A stretch of 64,000 bases of DNA from positions 1,138-65,137 of IMG/VR virus record IMGVR_UViG_3300043179_000079. One strand, written 5' to 3'. The stretch comes from a virus. Shown here one piece after another: positions 29,740 to 41,489 of this stretch (positions are counted from its first letter, which is position 1; each line of letters opens with the position of its first letter). The position numbers were made by a program, and so were the translations under genes. The notes beneath the pieces are model-generated. The model had not been told where the DNA came from. It searched no databases and saw nothing but the letters and a program-made list of their open reading frames with translations.

Positions 29740-29943
29740 ATGCCGAAGTTGACGCGAGAGGTAAACGAGAGCAGGGAGTCCAGCGTGTTCCGCCTGCTGG
29801 AGGGGAGGCCCGAGGCCTCCCTGGCGGACCTCAACGACGCCCTCAAGGCCGAGTACGGCCACCGGATGAACACCACGCGCCTGTCCGCCCTCCGGGAGAG
29901 GTTCCGCGCCCGGATCCAGCCCGGCCCGAGGACCCGCCCGTGA
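29740..29943 (+). CDS. small helical, possibly DNA-binding protein
   Basis: AAGGAGG SD; 67 aa. Confidence 0.7.
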   Translation: MPKLTREVNESRESSVFRLLEGRPEASLADLNDALKAEYGHRMNTTRLSALRERFRARIQPGPRTRP

Positions 29944-30779
29944 GGCTCCCCCTTATCCTGCTGTGCGGGAGGGCGGGGTCCGGGAAAGACACGGTCTCCG
30001 GCATCATGGCGTCGGAGTACCGGGCCGCCTCGGTGGCCCAGGCCGACCCCATGAAGAGGTTCTGCCACGACGTCTTCCAGTTCACCGAGGACCAGCTATG
30101 GGGCCCGAGCGAGCTGCGGGACACGCCGGACGACCGCTACGTCCCGGACGGCAACCCCACGCTGTCGCGCCGCATGCACGAGGACGCCCGCTTCAACTTC
30201 GAGGGATGCCACCGGCACTGGCTGGAGGCGATCGGCATCAAGGAGACCCCCGAGGCGGTCCACCAACTGCGGGCGGGGTGGTTCAACGGGTGCATGGACC
30301 TGGCGGGCCGGGGGCTCCTGTCCCCGCGCCTCGCCCTCCAGACCCTGGGCACCGAGTTCGGACGCAGGCAGGACCGGCAGGTGTGGGTCCGCGGCGCCCA
30401 GGAGGCCGCCCTGCTGCTGATCAGGGGCGGGTACAGGTACCACCGGCTCCGCGGGGTCGTGGCCTCCGACGGGCCGTACCCCGACTACGTCACGATCACG
30501 GACGGAAGGTTCCGCAACGAGGTCGTGGGGGTCCTGGAGAGGGGAGGGGAGGCCTGGTCGGTGACCGGACGCGCCCGCGACCTGCCCTCGGGCGGCGGCC
30601 ACCGGTCGGAGAACGAGCTGTCGGACGTGCCCGACCACCTGTACGCCCAGCGCATCGACAACTCCGGCACCTTAGACGACCTGCGCCGGGAGGTGGCCAG
30701 GGCCCTCTCATCCTCCTTCGGCGACCGCCGCCGGACGGAGTTAGACGCCGAGCGCCTCATGCGCCGGGCCGGGGGCTAG
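29940..30779 (+). CDS. deoxynucleoside monophosphate kinase (T4 gp1-like)
   Basis: CGRAGSGKDT, ADPMK, PRLALQTLGTE.GR, ITDGRFRNE, H.SE, IDNSGTLDDL. Confidence 0.9.
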   Translation: MRLPLILLCGRAGSGKDTVSGIMASEYRAASVAQADPMKRFCHDVFQFTEDQLWGPSELRDTPDDRYVPDGNPTLSRRMHEDARFNFEGCHRHWLEAIGIKETPEAVHQLRAGWFNGCMDLAGRGLLSPRLALQTLGTEFGRRQDRQVWVRGAQEAALLLIRGGYRYHRLRGVVASDGPYPDYVTITDGRFRNEVVGVLERGGEAWSVTGRARDLPSGGGHRSENELSDVPDHLYAQRIDNSGTLDDLRREVARALSSSFGDRRRTELDAERLMRRAGG

Positions 30780-30782
30780 CCC

Positions 30783-31028
30783 CTGGCCGAGCAGCAGTAC
30801 GCCCAGTGCACCCTGCGCCGCCCCCTCGGGGAGGGCCGATCCCAGGTCGAGGTCGCCTGGATACCCAGCCGGTTCGCGGTGGCGGGGAGGTGGCTGAAGA
30901 TCCGAACCGAGGAGGGGGAGTGGGTCAACGGGTGGCGCGTCGAGAGCGTCGGGGCGCGGCGGGGGTCGTCCTACCTGGACCTGAAGTCCCGGGACCACCT
31001 GCGCCAGAGGAGGGCCTCGGACGTTTAA
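30783..31028 (+). CDS. conserved phage hypothetical protein, apparent CTG start (not in ORF track)
   Basis: QYAQCTLRR...AWIP.RFA..G..L.I...W.NGW.V..V...RD...QR.ASDV*; same frame as kinase, after its TAG. Confidence 0.7.
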   Translation: MAEQQYAQCTLRRPLGEGRSQVEVAWIPSRFAVAGRWLKIRTEEGEWVNGWRVESVGARRGSSYLDLKSRDHLRQRRASDV

Positions 31029-31342
31029 CGTCCAGGAGTGGGACGTTTACCGCCCGGGAGCAGGATTCTCGGAGCGCGAGGAGCGGGTGCGGCCAACCGG
31101 GCCCTCATTCTGAGGCCCCCCAGGGGGTTGCTTGAGTGCACCGACACCCTGGCCGGGCGCCGCCCCGTCTCGTTCATCCACCTGACCAGGTGATCGCCGG
31201 TCTCCTGGCCGCGGCCCAGGTCGTGGTCCAGGGACGCCTCCTCGACCCGGCCGGTCTGTAGGTGCGCCTTGGCCTCCTCCACCGTCCGGGCGTGGACCCA
31301 GCCCGCGGGGGCCGGTCGGACGTCGTCGAGCCAGAGCTTCAT
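31025..31342 (-). CDS. cyclic-phosphate-processing receiver-like domain protein
   Basis: MKLWLDD.R..P.GW...SLDHDLG...G...VHSSNP.G..RM. Confidence 0.85.
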   Translation of the reverse strand: MKLWLDDVRPAPAGWVHARTVEEAKAHLQTGRVEEASLDHDLGRGQETGDHLVRWMNETGRRPARVSVHSSNPLGGLRMRARLAAPAPRAPRILLPGGKRPTPGR

Positions 31343-31347
31343 CTTCT

Positions 31348-31539
31348 CTAGGAAGATTGACGAACCGACACCGAGTAGTTCTGGGACCGGTTGATGGCCG
31401 CCACGAGGTCCGCGACGCTCTCGGTCGGGTCCCGCAGCACCCACGCCATGTGCTCCTTGACGTACGCCCGCAGCGCGTCGTCCCCGACGAGGGAGACGGA
31501 CCTCCTCGTCCACAGGTTGTCGATGGTGTAGGTGCTCAT
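31348..31539 (-). CDS. stand-alone homolog of the N-terminal domain of the tandem kinase protein
   Basis: Y.I.NL.T.....L..DD.L......W.......S...L......Q shared with start of 31544..33838. Confidence 0.7.
   Translation of the reverse strand: MSTYTIDNLWTRRSVSLVGDDALRAYVKEHMAWVLRDPTESVADLVAAINRSQNYSVSVRQSS
31353..31359 (-). promoter_or_regulatory. candidate late-promoter box CAATCTT
   Basis: 10 nt before ATG 31342. Confidence 0.55.
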
Positions 31540-31543
31540 ACGA

Positions 31544-33838
31544 CTATACTACCCTCGTGCTGGCGTACGGGTCAACGAACTTCTCTTCGGGGTCGGGGAG
31601 GGTGTCCGCCGGCCGGTCCTCCGGCTCGATCGGGGGGTCTACGTGGTCCTTCAGGAAGGAGTCCTCCCTGCCCCAGGAGGCGGCCCTGAGGAGGTGGTCG
31701 TACCTGGCGTTGAAGCCCCGGCGCACGTGCTCCCGCTCCCGCGGGTCCCTTATCATACCCAGCCTCGCCTCGAAGACCCTCTTGACCTCGGGGGCCGCCT
31801 TGGACCACCACGCCATGGTGCGCTTGACGTCTCCCGGGCCTCGCTCCTGGTCTTCCCCGGCCAGGGCGCTGTTCTGGTACTGGTCGTAGAGGCTCGTGTA
31901 CGTCCTCCAGTGTCTGCCTGTGCCGTAGTCGTAGCTCATCGCGTTGTCGATGGCGAGGGGGCGCCCCCTCGCCATCATGAGGTTGCCTGGGTGGCGGTCG
32001 GTGTTCTGGGACAGGAAGTCCATCACCGCGATCCTCCGTAGGTCCTCCCTGGCGGTGGCGGACACCCTGAAGCTCTGCTCGTGGTCGGCCTCCGGGTCCA
32101 GGTGCACGGCCAGCATGGGCACCGGGCCCGCGGATCCCCGGGCGAACACCACCGACACCTTCTGGTGCAGGCGGCCGATGCCGGCGGCGTGGTAGAGGGC
32201 CTGGTTGGTCATCTCGGACCACCCCAGCTTGGGGTGCCTCGTGCCGTACTGCCGGTGGTCCTCGTGGTACGGCTTGAGGAGGAAGGAGTGCTGGGCCCCC
32301 TTCATGACCACCTTAGGGGAGACCCCGGTGACGCCCTCGCTCCGATCCTCCACCGTGTTGTCCGGGTGCGCGAGGGAGGCCCGGAGGTCGTCGAACACGG
32401 CCCGGTGCTGCTTTCGCTCCCACGAGGGCTCGGCGTGGTGGTCGGTGGGAGGGGCCTGGGGGTCGTGCGGGTGCGTCTTCCCGTGCATGGCATCGACCTC
32501 GGGCGCGGGGACGGCCTTGGCCAGACCGACCCCCAGGCCCGTAGCCCACGCCCGGTTCACCGAGAAGTCCGCCAGCTCCGAGGACGCTGCCGCCTGCAGG
32601 GCCGACAGCCGGTCCAGGCTGGGCTGCGGGTCAACCCCGTACCGGGCGAGGGCGAGGGCCAGCCGCGCCCGGTCCACGGACCCCAGCCAGGACCTCAGGG
32701 ACCTCTCCCCGTCCACGGTGGCGCGCGGGAGCCCCGCCAGGCGCTCCCCGGGCGGCAGGCGCGCCCACCCCTCGGGCGCCCACACCCGCAGGTAGTAGGG
32801 GGTGAAGCTGTTGGGGTCGTTCGCCGGGTCGAACCCGCGGCCGGCCAGGGCCGACCCCTGGTCGATGAGCTGGACCGGGCGGTCCTCGGACGAGAGGACG
32901 TTCCGGCTGTGCCGGTCGGTCTGACCCAGGACCCAGTCCGCGGCCGCCAGCATGTGCAGGGTGCCGTCCCCGAGCAGGGGGAGCAGCGCCAGCCGCAGGC
33001 CGGCCTGGTCGTCGCGGAAGCGCCGGTACATGGGGGCGAACCCGGCCGCCTCGGAGAGCCACTCGACGGCGGCGTACTGCCGGCCGTCCACGAGGACCAG
33101 GTCCCCGCGCGGGGCGTAGGCGCCCAGGCCCATCCCGTCCAGAGCGTGCCAGAAGGCGGCCTCGCGCTGGCTCTGGGTGGCGGTCTCGTCACGCGCGCCG
33201 GCCGCCGGGGACTGGCGACCCGAGCCGGGCTTGAGCAGGAGGGCGCGGCCGGTCTCGGGGTCATCCGCCAGGACGGCGCCCGCGGCATGCTTGCCCCCCC
33301 TGAGGGAGACGGGGTGGGTGCGCCCCGCCTTGACGGCCCTGGCGATTGCCCCGGCCGCCTCGCGGGCCTCGGGCGCTCCGGGCGCCACCTGCGCCGACTC
33401 CTTGAGGCCCTCGGCCGAGTCGTCCACCACGGCCTCGCTCTTCCGGACGCCCTCGACCGCGGCCAGGCCGCGCAGGGCCAGCCGGTTCTCCTCGGTCGGC
33501 TCCAGCCCGGCGGCGGACAGGGCCGCCGCCTCGTCGTCGCCCTCGTGCAGGACGGCGTGCGGCCGGTGGCTCGGGTCGTCGTGCAGGCCGCCCTCCCGGA
33601 GGAGGCGCGCCGCCTCCATCAGGGAGTCCACCCCGAGGGACCCCCTCGGGAACTCGGGCTCCTCCTCGTGCCACGCGTCGAACATCTGGTGGTGGGCCAG
33701 GCGCTCCAGCAGGCTCTGCGCCGACGGCGGCGACGGGATGAACGCCCACGGGGCGCGGTCCTGCGCCCAGCGGAACAGGTCATCGTCGGTGGCCAGCTCG
33801 TGGCCCTCCCCGGTGTACAGGTTGGTGATGCGGTACAT
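31544..33838 (-). CDS. tandem HipA/PI3-4K-like kinase polyprotein
   Basis: Kinase 1: LLKP, REAA, DRHSRN, LIDQG; kinase 2: LLKPY, WSE, DRHPGN, AIDNA; linkers VRKSE and LAKAV. Confidence 0.8.
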   Translation of the reverse strand: MYRITNLYTGEGHELATDDDLFRWAQDRAPWAFIPSPPSAQSLLERLAHHQMFDAWHEEEPEFPRGSLGVDSLMEAARLLREGGLHDDPSHRPHAVLHEGDDEAAALSAAGLEPTEENRLALRGLAAVEGVRKSEAVVDDSAEGLKESAQVAPGAPEAREAAGAIARAVKAGRTHPVSLRGGKHAAGAVLADDPETGRALLLKPGSGRQSPAAGARDETATQSQREAAFWHALDGMGLGAYAPRGDLVLVDGRQYAAVEWLSEAAGFAPMYRRFRDDQAGLRLALLPLLGDGTLHMLAAADWVLGQTDRHSRNVLSSEDRPVQLIDQGSALAGRGFDPANDPNSFTPYYLRVWAPEGWARLPPGERLAGLPRATVDGERSLRSWLGSVDRARLALALARYGVDPQPSLDRLSALQAAASSELADFSVNRAWATGLGVGLAKAVPAPEVDAMHGKTHPHDPQAPPTDHHAEPSWERKQHRAVFDDLRASLAHPDNTVEDRSEGVTGVSPKVVMKGAQHSFLLKPYHEDHRQYGTRHPKLGWSEMTNQALYHAAGIGRLHQKVSVVFARGSAGPVPMLAVHLDPEADHEQSFRVSATAREDLRRIAVMDFLSQNTDRHPGNLMMARGRPLAIDNAMSYDYGTGRHWRTYTSLYDQYQNSALAGEDQERGPGDVKRTMAWWSKAAPEVKRVFEARLGMIRDPREREHVRRGFNARYDHLLRAASWGREDSFLKDHVDPPIEPEDRPADTLPDPEEKFVDPYASTRVV

Positions 33839-33841
33839 AGC

Positions 33842-34909
33842 TTAGGGGGCCCCCTTCGAGCGGTACATCGGGACGGACCCGTCGAACAGGTGCTGGCGCC
33901 CCTCGGCCGCCGCGTCCAGGAAGGCCGCCCGGCGGTTGAAGTTCTGGGAGACGTGGTCGCGCAGGCCGGGGTGCCGGATCAGGTCCAGCCTCCTGTCCAT
34001 GGCCGCCTTGACCGCGGGGGACGCGCCACGCCACCACGCCAGGGCAGGGCCGTACGCCGCAGCGCCAGCCTCCTCGCGCACCCGGACGTCGTCCATGCCC
34101 CAGTCAGCAGTGGGGCGCGGGATGGCGGGTACGAGGTTCTCCCAGGCCTGGTCCCGGTGGTAGGACAGCACCCCGTCGTCGCGGTTCATCCTCGCGACGT
34201 GGCGCGGGTGCCACTTGGGCGCCGCGTACTGGAAGGCCAGGGCGTGGTCGATGGCGAGGGGGCGCTGCTCGGGGTCGGGCCCCAGGAGTAGGTTGTCCCC
34301 GTGCCGGTTCGGCATCCCGGTCAGGAAGTCCATCAGGACCATCTTCCTGACGTGGTCGCCCATGGAGGACGGCCCGTCCCCCCTCGGGGAGACGCCCGTC
34401 TGCATGTCGCCCACGGAGGTGTGGCCGGGCGCCATGTGGACCACCACCAGGGGGTGCCGTCCGAACCCGTCGTCGTGGTGCACCACGTGGACGCGCTGGT
34501 GGAGGTCGCCGATGCCCCCGGCGTGGTACAGCGCCTGGCTGGTCATCTCGGACCAGCCCCCGATGGGGTGCCTCCCGTACCCCCGATGCAGGTCGCGCGG
34601 GATCCTCTCGAAGTAGGGCTTCACCAGGAAGCGGTCCCTGGCCCCGGCCTGCGCGGTCGAGGCGACCTCGAACACGGCCTTGTGGGAGCGGACCATGCCC
34701 ATGCCGCCCTGCCGGTGCTGGGGGGCGCCGCGGACGCTCCGGACCGGCCCCGGCCAGGACTGGACGCGCGAGAAGGCCTCCACGAGGTGGCCGTGGGCCG
34801 GCGGGTGGAGCCCCCGCTCCCGCTCGTGGTCCACCAGGGACGGGCCCTCCTTGGCCTGGGCCTCCATGACCCGGCCGACGCCCTCCAGGCGCTTGGCGAG
34901 GCTAGCCAC
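33842..34909 (-). CDS. HipA/PI3-4K-like kinase, probable pseudokinase
   Basis: LVKPY, GWSEMT.QALYHA.GIG.LHQ as in kinase 2; catalytic DRH is NRH (34301-34309). Confidence 0.75.
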   Translation of the reverse strand: MASLAKRLEGVGRVMEAQAKEGPSLVDHERERGLHPPAHGHLVEAFSRVQSWPGPVRSVRGAPQHRQGGMGMVRSHKAVFEVASTAQAGARDRFLVKPYFERIPRDLHRGYGRHPIGGWSEMTSQALYHAGGIGDLHQRVHVVHHDDGFGRHPLVVVHMAPGHTSVGDMQTGVSPRGDGPSSMGDHVRKMVLMDFLTGMPNRHGDNLLLGPDPEQRPLAIDHALAFQYAAPKWHPRHVARMNRDDGVLSYHRDQAWENLVPAIPRPTADWGMDDVRVREEAGAAAYGPALAWWRGASPAVKAAMDRRLDLIRHPGLRDHVSQNFNRRAAFLDAAAEGRQHLFDGSVPMYRSKGAP

Positions 34910-37496
34910 GGCGCCTCATGGGGTGCCTCGGGCCGACCGACGCCTCCTCCGAGGCCCGGGAGGAGTCGGGGGAGTGCTGGGCGGCCTCGCGGACGAGCCG
35001 CACGTGCTCCGGGCCGGCCTCCACGTGCCGCATCAGGGCCCCGACCTGGTGGGTGGGGTGGCGGCCGTCGCGGGTCAGGCGCGCGGCGGCGAGCAGGCGC
35101 AGCGTGTACGGGCTCCGGATGCGCGCCACGGCGGCCTGCGACACGGCCGGGTTGTCGTCCAGCGCGGCCCGCAGCAGGTCTCCCTCGCTCGGGTTGGGTG
35201 AGGCCAGCACCGCCAGCGCCCGCTCGTCGGGGTCGTGGTGGTCGAGGAGGGGGTCGGATTTCTGAAGACTTTTTCCTCCTCCTCTAGCAAATCTTTCCAC
35301 CTGTTCCTCCTCTTCTTCATCCGACAAACGAGGTATATTGTCACGATATCTGCGTTGTTCATGCCATGCGTGACCGATCTCATGTAGAATAGAGACCTCG
35401 ATCTCCCTTCTCATCTCTGGTTCGGTCACGTATCTGGCGTGTTCGGCAAGGGAAGGGGTGTGGAGGACGATATGAGGAGCGGCGTGCGTAAACCTGACGA
35501 AGGTGCTTACCGCGTTGTGGTTTTTTTCTGGCAGTTTGGTTGCGTAATGGATTGTGGGCTCGATCATCCCCAGCTTACGAAAGGTGTTTTTGTGGTCCTT
35601 TAGGACACGTTGCACCATGTCCACCATAGAAGGAGGCGGAGACGGGTCCTTTTGGTAGCCACGCATGACGGGGCGTCTTGCCATCTGGAGCCAGTGTTCT
35701 GGGTCGTATGTAGATTTCTCCAGGCACTCCTGCGACGCGAGGAGGTCGTCCTCGCTCTTCCCCACGGGGGCGGCGCCGACGTCCGCGGGCAGGAGCTGGT
35801 CGGCGTACGCCCGCACGTGGTGGTACGCGCGCTTCATGGCGTCATCGACCAGGCGGGCCCCCTGCTCGTCCCGCTCGTTGGCGGAGTGGTACCTCCGCCT
35901 GGTCTGCGGGTCGTTCACGTAGTTGTGCAGCAGCGCGACGCACTCCTCGTTGAAGGACCGGCCGTCGGGCTGGTAGCCGCGGTGCTCGGCGAACCTCTCG
36001 ACGTGGGACCTGAGGGCCTGAGGCAGAGAGCCGACGAGGCGCTCCGCCAGCCGCCAGCGCGCGGGCAGGCCGTGCCGGACCTCGACCTCCCGCATGGCGA
36101 GGTGGAAGTCCTCGTGCAGGGCCGTCGCCGCGGCCGAGTTGTGGTGCTGCGCGTCGTACGGCCTGGCCTCCCCGGCGAGCGCGAAGGCCGCCCTGGACCC
36201 CGGGACGCTGCTGGCGGTCCCCATGAGGCCCGGCCTGCTGCCGCTCTGGACGTCCACGGCGTCGCTGGCGCTCCTGGCCCGGACCGCGGACGCCCGGTCG
36301 GCGTTGTAGGCGTCCAGGTGGCGGGCGTGCGCCGCCCCTATCAGCCTCATCCGCAGACCGGCCTCCTGGGTGGTGGTCACGAAGGGCGTCTCCCGGCGCG
36401 GCTCGATGCCCAGGCCCTTGAACGCGATCTGGGGCTGGAACTTCTCCAGCGGGACCGACTTGAGGGTGTAGGAGTAGGGCGGATACACGGACCCCTGCTT
36501 CTCGCTGGGCGAGTAGGCTAGACCGTGCTTCCGCGCCAGGGCCTCGTGCACCCTCCTGGCCCCCTCGGTGTGGGTGCCGCCGGTCACCGAGTCCACTCCG
36601 AGCACGTGCTTGGCGTGGACGAGGGCGGCCTCGTACATGGCAGTCCCCAAACCCTTGCCTCGGAACGCCCTGGCGAGAGATGAGTGGATCTCGATCCCGG
36701 GCCGCCTTCCGGGACGCGGCTTCCACACCTCCAGCCTCCCCACCATGTCGCCGCGGTGGCGCAGGCGCACCTCGAAGATGCCGTGGTCGGGGTTGTCGAA
36801 CAGCTCCATGTCGGTATCGCCGCCACGGTGGGTCTCGGGGAGGAGGTGCCCGTAGTCGTAATACCAACTGCCGGCGCCCTTCTGCCTGCCCGTGGGCAGG
36901 TCCGCTATCGCCTTTCCGAGGGGCTGCGTCGATGACGCCCGGCGCACGTACTGGCGCACCACGTTATCCGGCCCCTCGGGGCCGTGCAGGTAGTCCCACA
37001 CCTCGGGGTCGAGCCCCTGGTGGACCGGGTGGAAGGTCCACTCGGCGGCCTCCCGGTCGGGGTCGAGCAGGCCGTGGGCCTGCCCCGAGACCAGGGCGGT
37101 GAACACGTGCAGCGTCTTGCCGTCCGGGGTCGTGCTCGTGCCCGCGGGCGTGACCGACATCGGGCGCAGGCCGGTCTCCTCGAACAGCTCGCGGCGCGCG
37201 GCCTCCTCGGGCAGCTCGCCCTCGTCCGCGTGCCCGCCCGGCAGGGACCAGCGGCCGTTGTCGTGCCGCCTCCCCAGCAGCAGGCGCCCGTGGGCGTCGT
37301 ACGCCATCACGAGGGCCACCTCCCGCGGCCCCTCGGACTTCTTGACGTCTCGGAATCCGGAGAAGTCGTCCCTGGCGACGAACCCGGCCTTCACCTCGTC
37401 GGCGTGGTCGTCGCAAGCCGGGACGTACGCCATGCCCTCGGCGTGGAGCACCTTCTTGGTGGCGTCCCTCTTGCACCTATCGCAGCGCTCGGCCAC
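34902..37496 (-). CDS. multi-effector polyprotein: Zn-finger, NUDIX, GNAT, zincin, zincin, helical repeat
   Basis: Nudix box GHADEGELPEEAARRELFEETGL; GNAT AFRGKGLGTAMY; LHEDFH and LHEIGH; linkers VKKS, LGKA, LEKF, VGKS, LEKS, LQKS. Confidence 0.85.
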   Translation of the reverse strand: MAERCDRCKRDATKKVLHAEGMAYVPACDDHADEVKAGFVARDDFSGFRDVKKSEGPREVALVMAYDAHGRLLLGRRHDNGRWSLPGGHADEGELPEEAARRELFEETGLRPMSVTPAGTSTTPDGKTLHVFTALVSGQAHGLLDPDREAAEWTFHPVHQGLDPEVWDYLHGPEGPDNVVRQYVRRASSTQPLGKAIADLPTGRQKGAGSWYYDYGHLLPETHRGGDTDMELFDNPDHGIFEVRLRHRGDMVGRLEVWKPRPGRRPGIEIHSSLARAFRGKGLGTAMYEAALVHAKHVLGVDSVTGGTHTEGARRVHEALARKHGLAYSPSEKQGSVYPPYSYTLKSVPLEKFQPQIAFKGLGIEPRRETPFVTTTQEAGLRMRLIGAAHARHLDAYNADRASAVRARSASDAVDVQSGSRPGLMGTASSVPGSRAAFALAGEARPYDAQHHNSAAATALHEDFHLAMREVEVRHGLPARWRLAERLVGSLPQALRSHVERFAEHRGYQPDGRSFNEECVALLHNYVNDPQTRRRYHSANERDEQGARLVDDAMKRAYHHVRAYADQLLPADVGAAPVGKSEDDLLASQECLEKSTYDPEHWLQMARRPVMRGYQKDPSPPPSMVDMVQRVLKDHKNTFRKLGMIEPTIHYATKLPEKNHNAVSTFVRFTHAAPHIVLHTPSLAEHARYVTEPEMRREIEVSILHEIGHAWHEQRRYRDNIPRLSDEEEEEQVERFARGGGKSLQKSDPLLDHHDPDERALAVLASPNPSEGDLLRAALDDNPAVSQAAVARIRSPYTLRLLAAARLTRDGRHPTHQVGALMRHVEAGPEHVRLVREAAQHSPDSSRASEEASVGPRHPMRRRG

Positions 37497-38780: not shown

Positions 38781-38787
38781 AAGATTG
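38781..38787 (-). promoter_or_regulatory. candidate late-promoter box CAATCTT
   Basis: Upstream of SD of 38757. Confidence 0.55.
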
Positions 38788-40082: not shown

Positions 40083-41489
40083 TTATGACGTGAGGTTATC
40101 GCAGATCACGTTCTTCCTGGGCTGCATGATGGCCAGCGTGGCGAACCGGAAGAAGGCCTCCGGGGACGCCAGCTCGGTCACCGCCAGCTTGAGGCGCGTG
40201 AAGGGCGCCAGCTCGCGCATCTCCATGGTGTTCCCCTGGACGAGGAACCCGGTGACGAACCCCGGGATCTTGTTGCCGAGGTCGTGGAAGACCGTGGTCG
40301 CCCCGGTCGAGGAGGCCACCCGGCCGATGTACTTGGCCGAGGCCTCGCTGCCGCCGGCCGCGCTGCGGTACACGTTGTGGTACCGGTGCGTGCCCGAGCC
40401 GTGCGTGATGGTGACGACGACCTCGTCGCCGTCCGCCACGATGGTCTCGGCCACCGCCGCCGACTTGCCCGACTCGCCCTTCTCGTTCGCCGAGGTGACG
40501 TAGTAGGTGTAGACCTCGTCCTTGAGGAACGGGGTCACGATGCCCGCGGTCGTGGTGCTGACCGCCGAGGTCAGCGTCGGGGTGCCCGGGCTGTTGCGGC
40601 GGATCGGGGCGGGGCCCGTCTTGCCGGAGAGGAAGCGGCTCTCCTCCAGCTTGACCGTGCCGCCCGAGACGAACTGGCGGCGGAGGTCCGCGCCGGTCGC
40701 GTCCTGGGGGGTGCCCGCCAGGATGATGCGCTCCTTGTCGAACGCGATCTTGTTGTAGGTCGCGTGGACGAGGGGGTCGATGAGGAGCAGGTCGGCCTTG
40801 CCGAAGTTCATGCGGCTGCGCACCGCGGCGTTCTCGATGATGGTCTGCGTCAGCGTTCCGCCGCCGCTCACGACCACCGAGGTGCCGCTGCCGTACTCGC
40901 CGAACATGAGGTCCTGCGCCTGACGCTGCGCGTCCGACTGCCGGACCTGGAGGTCCACGCCGTGCATGTTCGGGAGCTGCGGGACCGCCAGCGGGTTGCC
41001 GTCGAAGACGCCCCCGTTGGAGAAGTCCGCGAGCCCGCGGAACAGGTCGAACTCGATGTCGCCCGCGATCTTGAGGGCGGCCGAGGCGGCCTCCCGCTCG
41101 TCGCTCTTACGGCCGTCGCTCGTCTCGACCATGGTCGAGGCGATCGTCACCTTGCGGGTGTGGCTGTAGAAGCACATCGGGACGGTCACCCGGACGTAGT
41201 CCGAGATCTCCTCTTCGCCGACGTTGCCTTCGAGCTGGGCCGAGCCACCGAAGATGCCGTACGACAACTGGCGGTTGAACTGCCAGAGCGTAGACTTCGC
41301 GGGGCGCGAGTCCACCATCTTCTGCAGCACCATGTCCTTCTCCTCGAAGGTCACGTTCTGCATGACCGGCGACAGGTCCTCGACCTGCAGCGCGCTGCCC
41401 TGGGTCAGGTTGCCTGGGGCGGTCCCTGCGTAGGTACCGGCCTCCAGCGCCTTCACCAGGTCCTGGATGTTCTTGACGAGGTCGTTCAT
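40083..41489 (-). CDS. major capsid protein (Twort/SPO1-like HK97 fold)
   Basis: 468 aa; G.ALQVEDL...TF...PA.ST...F.R...G....EG; short propeptide ending LVK-A. Confidence 0.9.
   Translation of the reverse strand: MNDLVKNIQDLVKALEAGTYAGTAPGNLTQGSALQVEDLSPVMQNVTFEEKDMVLQKMVDSRPAKSTLWQFNRQLSYGIFGGSAQLEGNVGEEEISDYVRVTVPMCFYSHTRKVTIASTMVETSDGRKSDEREAASAALKIAGDIEFDLFRGLADFSNGGVFDGNPLAVPQLPNMHGVDLQVRQSDAQRQAQDLMFGEYGSGTSVVVSGGGTLTQTIIENAAVRSRMNFGKADLLLIDPLVHATYNKIAFDKERIILAGTPQDATGADLRRQFVSGGTVKLEESRFLSGKTGPAPIRRNSPGTPTLTSAVSTTTAGIVTPFLKDEVYTYYVTSANEKGESGKSAAVAETIVADGDEVVVTITHGSGTHRYHNVYRSAAGGSEASAKYIGRVASSTGATTVFHDLGNKIPGFVTGFLVQGNTMEMRELAPFTRLKLAVTELASPEAFFRFATLAIMQPRKNVICDNLTS

Follow-up and report, generated by a model that had tools for sequence, protein, structure and literature searches.

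This work concerns a 64-kb window, part of a 67.7-kb IMG/VR virus contig (IMGVR_UViG_3300043179_000079; estimated completeness about 41%, GC content about 70%), and within it two adjacent genes on the minus strand, P0001 and P0002, that together encode three atypical kinase domains resembling type II phosphatidylinositol 4-kinases (PI4KII). P0001 carries two of these domains, D1 and D2, in a single chain. P0002 consists of one D2-type domain in which the catalytic DRH is replaced by NRH, and, judging from its sequence, it is probably a nucleotide-binding pseudokinase. The kinases are found in a block of polyvalent proteins of the virion module, and we give about even chances to the explanation that catalytic D1 and D2 and a dead-leaning P0002 are packaged, cut, and injected. 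The genes and their parts are listed below in coordinates of the window; ↓ marks a putative cut.

31544-33838, minus strand: P0001, 764 amino acids (aa), with the kinase domains D1 and D2.
33644-33838, minus strand: Nmod, P0001 residues 1-65, from a local profile search; about 60 proteins carry this module at residues 1 to about 65.
33440-33643, minus strand: helical pre-domain, P0001 residues 66-133, conserved with the D1 family and ending in VRK↓SE.
33434-33448, minus strand: putative processing site VRK↓SE, P0001 residues 131-135, with conserved K133.
32525-33439, minus strand: D1 kinase domain, P0001 residues 134-438, with K203, E226, D308-R-H-x-x-N313, and D326 all present.
32909-32917, minus strand: DRH of D1, residues 308-310, in D308RHSRN313.
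32513-32524, minus strand: LAKA junction of D1 and D2, residues 439-442, 81 residues ahead of the β3 Lys of D2; D1-type proteins usually stop at this point, and D2 cassettes usually open with this motif.
31544-32515, minus strand: D2 kinase domain, P0001 residues 442-764, with K522, E542, D614-R-H-x-x-N619, and D631 present.
31991-31999, minus strand: DRH of D2, residues 614-616, in D614RHPGN619.
33842-34909, minus strand: P0002, 355 aa, a D2-type PI4KII-like domain with NRH for DRH, predicted pseudokinase.
34889-34900, minus strand: LAK↓R, P0002 residues 4-7, 91 residues before the β3 Lys and thus inside the family range of 75-97.
34688-34699, minus strand: GMVR insertion, P0002 residues 71-74, in the Gly-rich loop ahead of the conserved Lys and present in P0002 only.
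34301-34309, minus strand: NRH of P0002, N201-R202-H203, with the Asn codon AAC.

Along P0001, the motifs of D1 (LLLKPG...TDRHSRN...LIDQG) are followed by LAKA and then by those of D2 (FLLKPY...TDRHPGN...AIDNA). The corresponding motifs of P0002 are FLVKPY...PNRHGDN...AIDHA, and its catalytic set is K97, E121, N201RHGDN206, and D221. Both open reading frames (ORFs) are genuine coding frames with a GC content at third codon positions (GC3) of 0.96-0.97. A preceding sequence-only reading had described two kinase-like domains in 31544-33838, with DRH at 32909 and 31991 and LAKA in between, and each of these motifs is found in its place, the cited DRH positions being the low ends of the codon triplets. 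It had also taken the neighbor with NRH at 34301-34309 for a paralog of the second domain, which is borne out by 37% identity over 256 columns (BLASTP, E 2e-34) and by the common stretch GWSEMT.QALYHA.GIG.LHQ. Its designation of P0002 as the third kinase is right by count only; in transcription order, the P0002 gene precedes P0001. The likeness between D1 and D2 is confined to the surroundings of the catalytic loop (E 0.002), and the D2 profile matches catalytic regions of the D1 family down to E 1e-12.

All three units are type-II-PI4K-like atypical kinase domains, as supported by profile matches and by predicted structures. The Pfam family PF00454 (PI3_PI4_kinase), with a curated cut-off of 27.1 bits, matches P0001 with 31.3 bits at residues 598-634, which belong to the D2 region. 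The D1 ortholog of Myxococcus phage Mx1, the sole cultured relative found for the window, reaches 34.4 bits, and D2 homologs reach 27.7-40.6 bits, mostly above the cut-off. Taken alone, P0002 (16.5 bits) and D1 of P0001 (11.6 bits) stay below it; hence, their membership follows from homology to members that pass. The AlphaFold2 (AF2) model of D1, which is based on a 100-sequence alignment, has a predicted local distance difference test score (pLDDT) of 92.6 and a predicted template modeling score (pTM) of 0.92. Its best structural match is PI4KIIβ (8a5x), with Z 19.6 and a root-mean-square deviation (rmsd) of 3.1 Å over 255 residues. The model of P0002 was built from 17 sequences (pLDDT 67.8, pTM 0.77, with pLDDT <50 at residues 60-74) and likewise matches PI4KII best, with Z 17.1 and an rmsd of 3.6 Å over 248 residues. 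Structures were compared by Foldseek (probability 1.00) and VIA. A second tier with Z 12-15 comprises CtkA, Fam20, and HipA/HipT (for D1, CtkA with Z 14.9 and HipT/HipA with Z 11-13), and PI3K, mTOR, and ATM give Z 10-12 against the kinase models. D2 of P0001 is assigned the kinase fold by its 37% identity to P0002. The sequence search against PDB chains gave chance-level matches only, PHROGs holds no family for P0001 or P0002, and NCBIfam returned only a far subthreshold SCO1664 match.

With respect to known kinases, the units share with type II PI4-kinases (4pla, 4hnd, 4wtv, 8a5x) the β3 Lys, the DRHxxN loop, the Mg-binding Asp, and the PF00454 region. They differ from them in showing only 12-15% identity and in occurring in a phage rather than a eukaryotic context. 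Furthermore, P0001 and P0002 contain zero cysteines, so that the CCPCC insert, which anchors PI4KII by palmitoylation, is absent and they are not members of the PI4KII family proper. HipA/HipT and Helicobacter pylori CtkA belong to the same atypical superfamily with a D-x-H-x-x-N loop (Z 11-15) but are less alike than PI4KII. In HipA, D309 is the catalytic base, the mutation of which inactivates the enzyme, and CtkA is a secreted effector kinase. The HipA_C profile reaches 14-22 bits, its cut-off being 30.5, and neither an antitoxin partner (HipB or HipS) nor the HipA N-terminal domain is found, which does not agree with HipA membership. The HipA/PI3-4K-like fold proposed from the sequence is thereby confirmed (PF00454 above the cut-off for P0001 and orthologs, Z 17-20 to PI4KII) and sharpened to type-II-PI4K-like.

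The three units vary most in the region that follows the Mg-binding Asp, which is longest in P0002 (low-confidence residues 230-282). Because this region differs, different substrates are suggested for the three units. These substrates might also be small molecules, lipids, or nucleotide-derived signals, with the kinases altering metabolites or immune second messengers of the host beside NUDIX and cREC proteins; we regard this as fairly unlikely. The nearest fold is indeed that of a lipid kinase, the Fam20 sugar/protein kinases are also near, the domains are constantly linked to NUDIX, and a cREC gene adjoins. Kinases of the PI4KII-like, Fam20-like, and APH-like types transfer phosphate to hydroxyls, be it on inositol lipids, sugars, or antibiotics. 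However, likeness of fold does not set the substrate, as CtkA and HipA are protein kinases. Moreover, the phage relatives span 41-72% GC, which makes a host-specific lipid unlikely as a general target; a myxobacterial phosphoinositide was set aside in this role for the same reason.

The catalytic residues separate P0002 from the other two units. In the D1 family (n=100), the Lys, the Glu, the DRH Asp, the Asn, and the Mg-binding Asp are invariant, and all of them are present in P0001. The same K/E/D/N/D columns are invariant in 17 D2 sequences, barring the Asp of P0002, and D2 of P0001 is complete. Across D2-type domains, 34 of 35 carry the DRH Asp, and the exchange for Asn, which the sequence-only reading had pointed out, is real and unique to P0002, where it lies in an otherwise intact motif. 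A second peculiarity is the insertion in the Gly-rich loop, found in P0002 alone among 32 D2-type domains aligned by hmmalign. P0002 thus combines two independent changes in its phosphotransfer machinery with retained nucleotide and metal ligands, and with its predicted fold it falls under the structural definition of a pseudokinase as a protein that keeps the kinase fold and has lost at least one canonical catalytic residue. The P0002 protein is identical in three assemblies, including an independent Logan assembly of SRR12687952; an assembly error is therefore unlikely, and a sequencing error behind NRH, which would have undone the reading, has lost weight. An independent degenerate copy is seen in P0155 (1687 aa, metagenomic), where the first of six kinase-like units lacks the Lys, the His/Asn of the loop, and the Mg-binding Asp.

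HER3 (HRN) and JAK2 JH2 (HGN) offer a parallel to P0002: each has a single exchange of Asp for Asn, keeps its ATP ligands, and is encoded alongside an active paralog. They are eukaryotic, belong to another kinase family, and are known to pair allosterically with the active paralog. Since these natural HRN/HGN kinases retain low activity and P0002 keeps all its other catalytic and metal-binding residues, P0002 might not be dead and might instead work as an enzyme of low or changed activity, for example with slow autophosphorylation, as an ATPase, or by other chemistry. This is unlikely in our view, given that the Asp is universal in 34 D2 and 100 D1 domains and that the Gly-rich loop of P0002 is altered too.

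The annotated product of P0002 begins at an internal ATG and comprises 286 aa (33842-34702, minus strand). Translation most likely begins at the GTG at 34909 instead, which gives 355 aa; this start is favored because the first 69 codons show nearly 100% GC3, because the independent gene call in the Logan assembly also yields 355 aa, and because P0005, a stand-alone D2 gene found elsewhere, can be aligned to P0002 from its own Met onward, including the LAK motif. In the alignment, LAK↓R of P0002 corresponds to LAK↓A in P0005, LNK↓A in P0006, and LYK↓A in P0008. The P0002 gene begins within the upstream NUDIX polyvalent gene, whose end it overlaps by 8 nucleotides (nt), with a TGA 9 nt upstream in the P0002 frame; this is read as translational coupling. 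A programmed frameshift from NUDIX into P0002 was considered and rejected, as neither a slippery signal nor other evidence speaks for it.

In most relatives, D2 and NUDIX share one chain, and here D2 is a separate gene with an overlapping GTG start. P0002 could hence be a superfluous copy that is being lost, split off the NUDIX polyprotein, with its Asp mutated neutrally and without a separate function. Only one genotype is available, and at 72% GC an ORF with high GC3 long outlasts inactivation. We consider such decay quite improbable: P0002 retains nine of 10 family-invariant residues without frameshifts or stops, and a stand-alone D2 gene with the same N-terminal LAK motif exists elsewhere (P0005). 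Its tree branch (0.87) is also shorter than the one leading to the intact paralog (1.51), so that P0002 does not resemble a rapidly decaying copy. Taken together, a decaying gene would match this sequence pattern less well than a pseudokinase with a function.

As for its function, P0002 had been proposed as a regulator, decoy, or self-protection factor for the second kinase; no support for such a role or pairing was obtained. The predicted complex of D2 (P0001 residues 442-764) and P0002 (residues 75-355), computed with alignments for both, scores 0.01 and is uninformative either way. P0002 may just as plausibly trap substrates or bind nucleotide as act allosterically. The Asn-bearing P0002 is a local peculiarity of the phage represented by the window.

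The domains themselves are widespread. A full-library search with P0001 yields 865 cluster representatives (clustered at 50% identity; E<=0.001), nearly all via D1. D1 ends at most 15 residues from the C terminus in 144 of 148 proteins, and half of the D1-type proteins exceed 749 aa, the longest comprising 2445 aa. Fusion partners of D1 and D2 in relatives are NUDIX, PBECR5, ART-PolyVal, GNAT, and ParB_N-like domains; NUDIX is fused with D2 in L006-L012 and in P0077, P0144, P0150, and P0162. D2-type domains are less common and occur in arrays; single chains hold three to six kinase domains, and in P0077 and P0144 three D2 domains follow NUDIX. In P0155, five D2-type units and one D1-type unit are joined in one chain. 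Profile and single-sequence searches for further stand-alone D2 relatives returned the same few proteins, and a longer search added two. The Nmod module (consensus M-x-I/V-x-V-x-N-h-Y/W ... F-P-W-L ... Q-x-Y), which has no Pfam match, invariably opens stand-alone D1 and D2 genes, beginning at residue 1, and is followed by an L-x-K↓[A/S/T] site in low-GC members; a role as head-targeting or pro-peptide domain is possible. Behind it, the pre-domain of P0001 forms helices with pLDDT >90 in the AF2 model, which pass into a linker of lower confidence.

Taking a polyvalent protein as a chain of a phage or conjugative element with at least two effector domains from a common pool, P0001 is one, having two kinase domains plus Nmod. 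Polyvalent proteins have been predicted to be injected with the DNA, with kinases as one of their domain classes (Iyer et al. 2017, PMC5512222). The present genes resemble that description in their strings of effector domains beside head genes and in their NUDIX, PBECR5, ART-PolyVal, and GNAT fusions. The kinase described there is of Ser/Thr/Tyr type with loss of the C-terminal subdomain, and most of its occurrences are in (pro)phages of Verrucomicrobia-Chlamydia and Bacteroidetes. The domains here, in contrast, possess a complete helical C-lobe and are found in virulent phages related to Mx1; PI3K and HipA are not mentioned in that article (PMC5512222). D1 and D2 therefore constitute a further kinase class in polyvalent proteins, beyond that of Iyer et al. 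2017. The literature on phage PI4K-like kinases or phage pseudokinases yielded nothing on this family. Weaker structural matches of the D1 model in BFVD (A0A6J5S481, A0A6B9L6W7, A0A6J5RTG7, A0A6J5N2Y3) are kinase-like domains of other phages that are fused to portal, MuF (head morphogenesis), and ADP-ribosyltransferase proteins.

The distribution of the family points to virulent phages. Scanning 185,579 species genomes for a single peptide pattern gave one locus, in a Saccharibacteria metagenome-assembled genome (MAG) bin; with one pattern used, the absence elsewhere is only suggestive. Because of this single locus, D1 and D2 seem to be confined to virulent phages and not to be prophage or host genes. 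No megablast match to the locus was found in plasmids. In tblastn searches of 50,697 phage records, P0002 gave no match, and P0001 matched Mx1 only.

In the window, the minus strand encodes the terminase, portal, major head protein, tail sheath, and other virion proteins, and the kinases lie between the capsid and sheath genes, an order shared by nine relatives: Mx1 and eight contigs of 41-59% GC, of which seven are from IMG/VR and one is a MAG contig. The conserved series reads capsid, the small conserved genes w38356 and w37509, NUDIX polyvalent protein, the gene with Nmod, helical part, and D1, and the virion-module genes w29354 and w28526. Because of the range in GC of this clade, its hosts are considered diverse. 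In the seven IMG/VR contigs, the NUDIX polyvalent protein carries one to three D2 domains; the window deviates in that P0002 is a separate gene overlapping the end of NUDIX and in that a second D2 is fused to the D1 gene via LAKA. Mx1 shows a gene annotated 'NUDIX hydrolase' (WNM70333) followed by one annotated 'kinase', in the same order as the window. This Mx1 'kinase' (L001 7299-9158, WNM70334) has a GNAT-like N-terminal part with LQK↓A and VMK↓SE sites and no Nmod. As the D1 kinase of Mx1 thus carries a different N-terminal part, modules are shuffled between these genes. The neighbors of the kinase genes are the following.

38781-38787, minus strand: CAATCTT box, heading a tightly packed gene run from 38757 to 31539 that includes the kinases.
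34902-37496, minus strand: NUDIX + GNAT + zincin-like polyvalent protein (Pfam); relatives carry D2 in the same chain.
31348-31539, minus strand: 63-aa ORF, a stand-alone Nmod copy (profile, independent E-value 3.8e-14; BLASTP to the P0001 N terminus, E 6e-05).
31025-31345, minus strand: cREC_REC gene (cyclic-phosphate processing receiver; PF20274, 93.9 bits), with its own CAATCTT box.
29740-30779, plus strand: deoxynucleoside monophosphate (dNMP) kinase gene and a small ORF, in opposite orientation within the late minus-strand module.

A CAATCTT box lies inside the 3' end of the 63-aa ORF (31353-31359). The 63-aa ORF, the cREC gene, and the dNMP kinase gene are all missing at this position in relatives. 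In Mx1, the homolog of the dNMP kinase segment is found upstream of the NUDIX block, so that the segment of the window was rearranged or inserted.

Altogether, 11 CAATCTT boxes are found in the window, all on the minus strand, against 1.1 expected, and the next box after 38781-38787 is encountered only at 31359. No terminator-like sites were found on the minus strand within the gene run 38757-31539. With the late-type box in the virion module, the synteny of the block, and the polyvalent fusions, injection of the kinases would be plausible.

The sequence h-x-K↓[A/S], often followed by Glu, recurs at domain boundaries. In the D1 family (n=100), 93% of the members have K133, 72% have A or S at residue 134, and 75% have E135, and the site precedes a variable linker. 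In about 22 of 27 D2 domains, whether internal or starting a gene, h-x-K-[ASGT] occurs 75-97 residues before the β3 Lys. The capsid protein of six phages (the window at 41433-41462, minus strand, and L006, L007, L009, L010, and L012) carries LVK↓ALEAG 12-20 residues from its N terminus. In the proteins of the window, the motif occurs 49 times, compared with 21.5 +/- 4.7 in shuffles. That the capsid and the domain boundaries share this motif suggests possible processing by a head protease.

A precedent for such a route is T4, in which Alt and IPI-III are packaged, lose an N-terminal targeting peptide to the prohead protease at a short motif, and are then injected. P0001 and P0002 have no sequence relation to them; furthermore, the T4 motif ends in Glu and the putative motif here in Lys. 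T7 gp0.7 is an early, nonpackaged kinase and demonstrates that a phage kinase can reprogram host proteins. The sequence-only reading had cited it as a precedent, which is apt as a functional analogy; as an early gene that is not packaged and has no sequence relation to P0001 and P0002, it does not serve beyond that.

According to the proposed explanation, D1 and D2 would be active phosphotransferases, and P0002 would bind nucleotide with poor or no phosphate transfer, like the HRN/HGN pseudokinases HER3 and JAK2 JH2. The proteins would be made late, loaded into the head, and cut after the Lys of h-x-K↓[A/S] (VRK↓SE at 133/134, LAK↓A at 441/442), freeing separate kinase units that would accompany the DNA into the host and there phosphorylate targets at an early stage of infection. 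On balance, packaging and ejection appear to be the likelier course from the sequence evidence.

The kinases may, on the other hand, be late intracellular enzymes and not virion cargo, acting late in the cycle, for example on phage assembly proteins, on envelope or lysis functions of the host, or on nucleotide pools. A late-type promoter box and a late-gene position would serve such enzymes equally, and since a dNMP kinase and cREC adjoin, not every gene of the region need be structural. What makes this somewhat improbable is that all relatives keep the block in synteny within the head-to-neck part of their structural module, that the boundary motifs shared with the capsid N terminus suggest processing by the head protease, and that the kinases are fused to polyvalent domains predicted to be injected (PMC5512222).

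Several observations weigh against packaging, cleavage, and injection of active kinases together with a dead copy. The case for delivery consists of gene position and motif conservation only, and the published genome note on Mx1 contains no functional data. The motif was defined post hoc, after inspection of the data, and it might instead cap the domain structurally. Per Lys, h-x-K[ASG] is found at 14% in late and 10% in early genes (p 0.38); as this comparison is nonsignificant, it is only the positional conservation that speaks for cleavage. With respect to P0002, its model is moderately confident (pLDDT 67.8), the three assemblies may stem from the same or related samples, and no close ortholog was found, which leaves one genotype. 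Finally, the exchange of Asp for Asn lowers phosphotransfer but need not abolish it.

A more far-reaching version, which we consider very unlikely, is a virion-delivered toolkit against nucleotide-based immunity, in which the active kinase domains, beside the NUDIX and cREC enzymes, would attach phosphate to sugar hydroxyls of second messengers of host immunity, or of precursors of these, and the Asn copy, as a binder without turnover, would sequester such a ligand or trap a host target. If true, it would represent both a new anti-defense chemistry and a new use of a pseudokinase.

The analysis defines two related, unannotated PI4KII-like families, D1 and D2, as constant components of the virion-module polyvalent proteins in a clade of virulent phages, where they are often arranged in kinase arrays of two to six, with conserved, protease-site–like boundary motifs and a shared N-terminal module. 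To our knowledge, phage-delivered kinases have hardly been studied besides T7 gp0.7, and P0002 would be an early example of a phage pseudokinase that we know of. The Asn copy provides a natural comparison of wild type and putatively dead kinase inside one phage. Because Mx1 grows on Myxococcus xanthus and is a cultured member of the clade, the predictions made here are testable.

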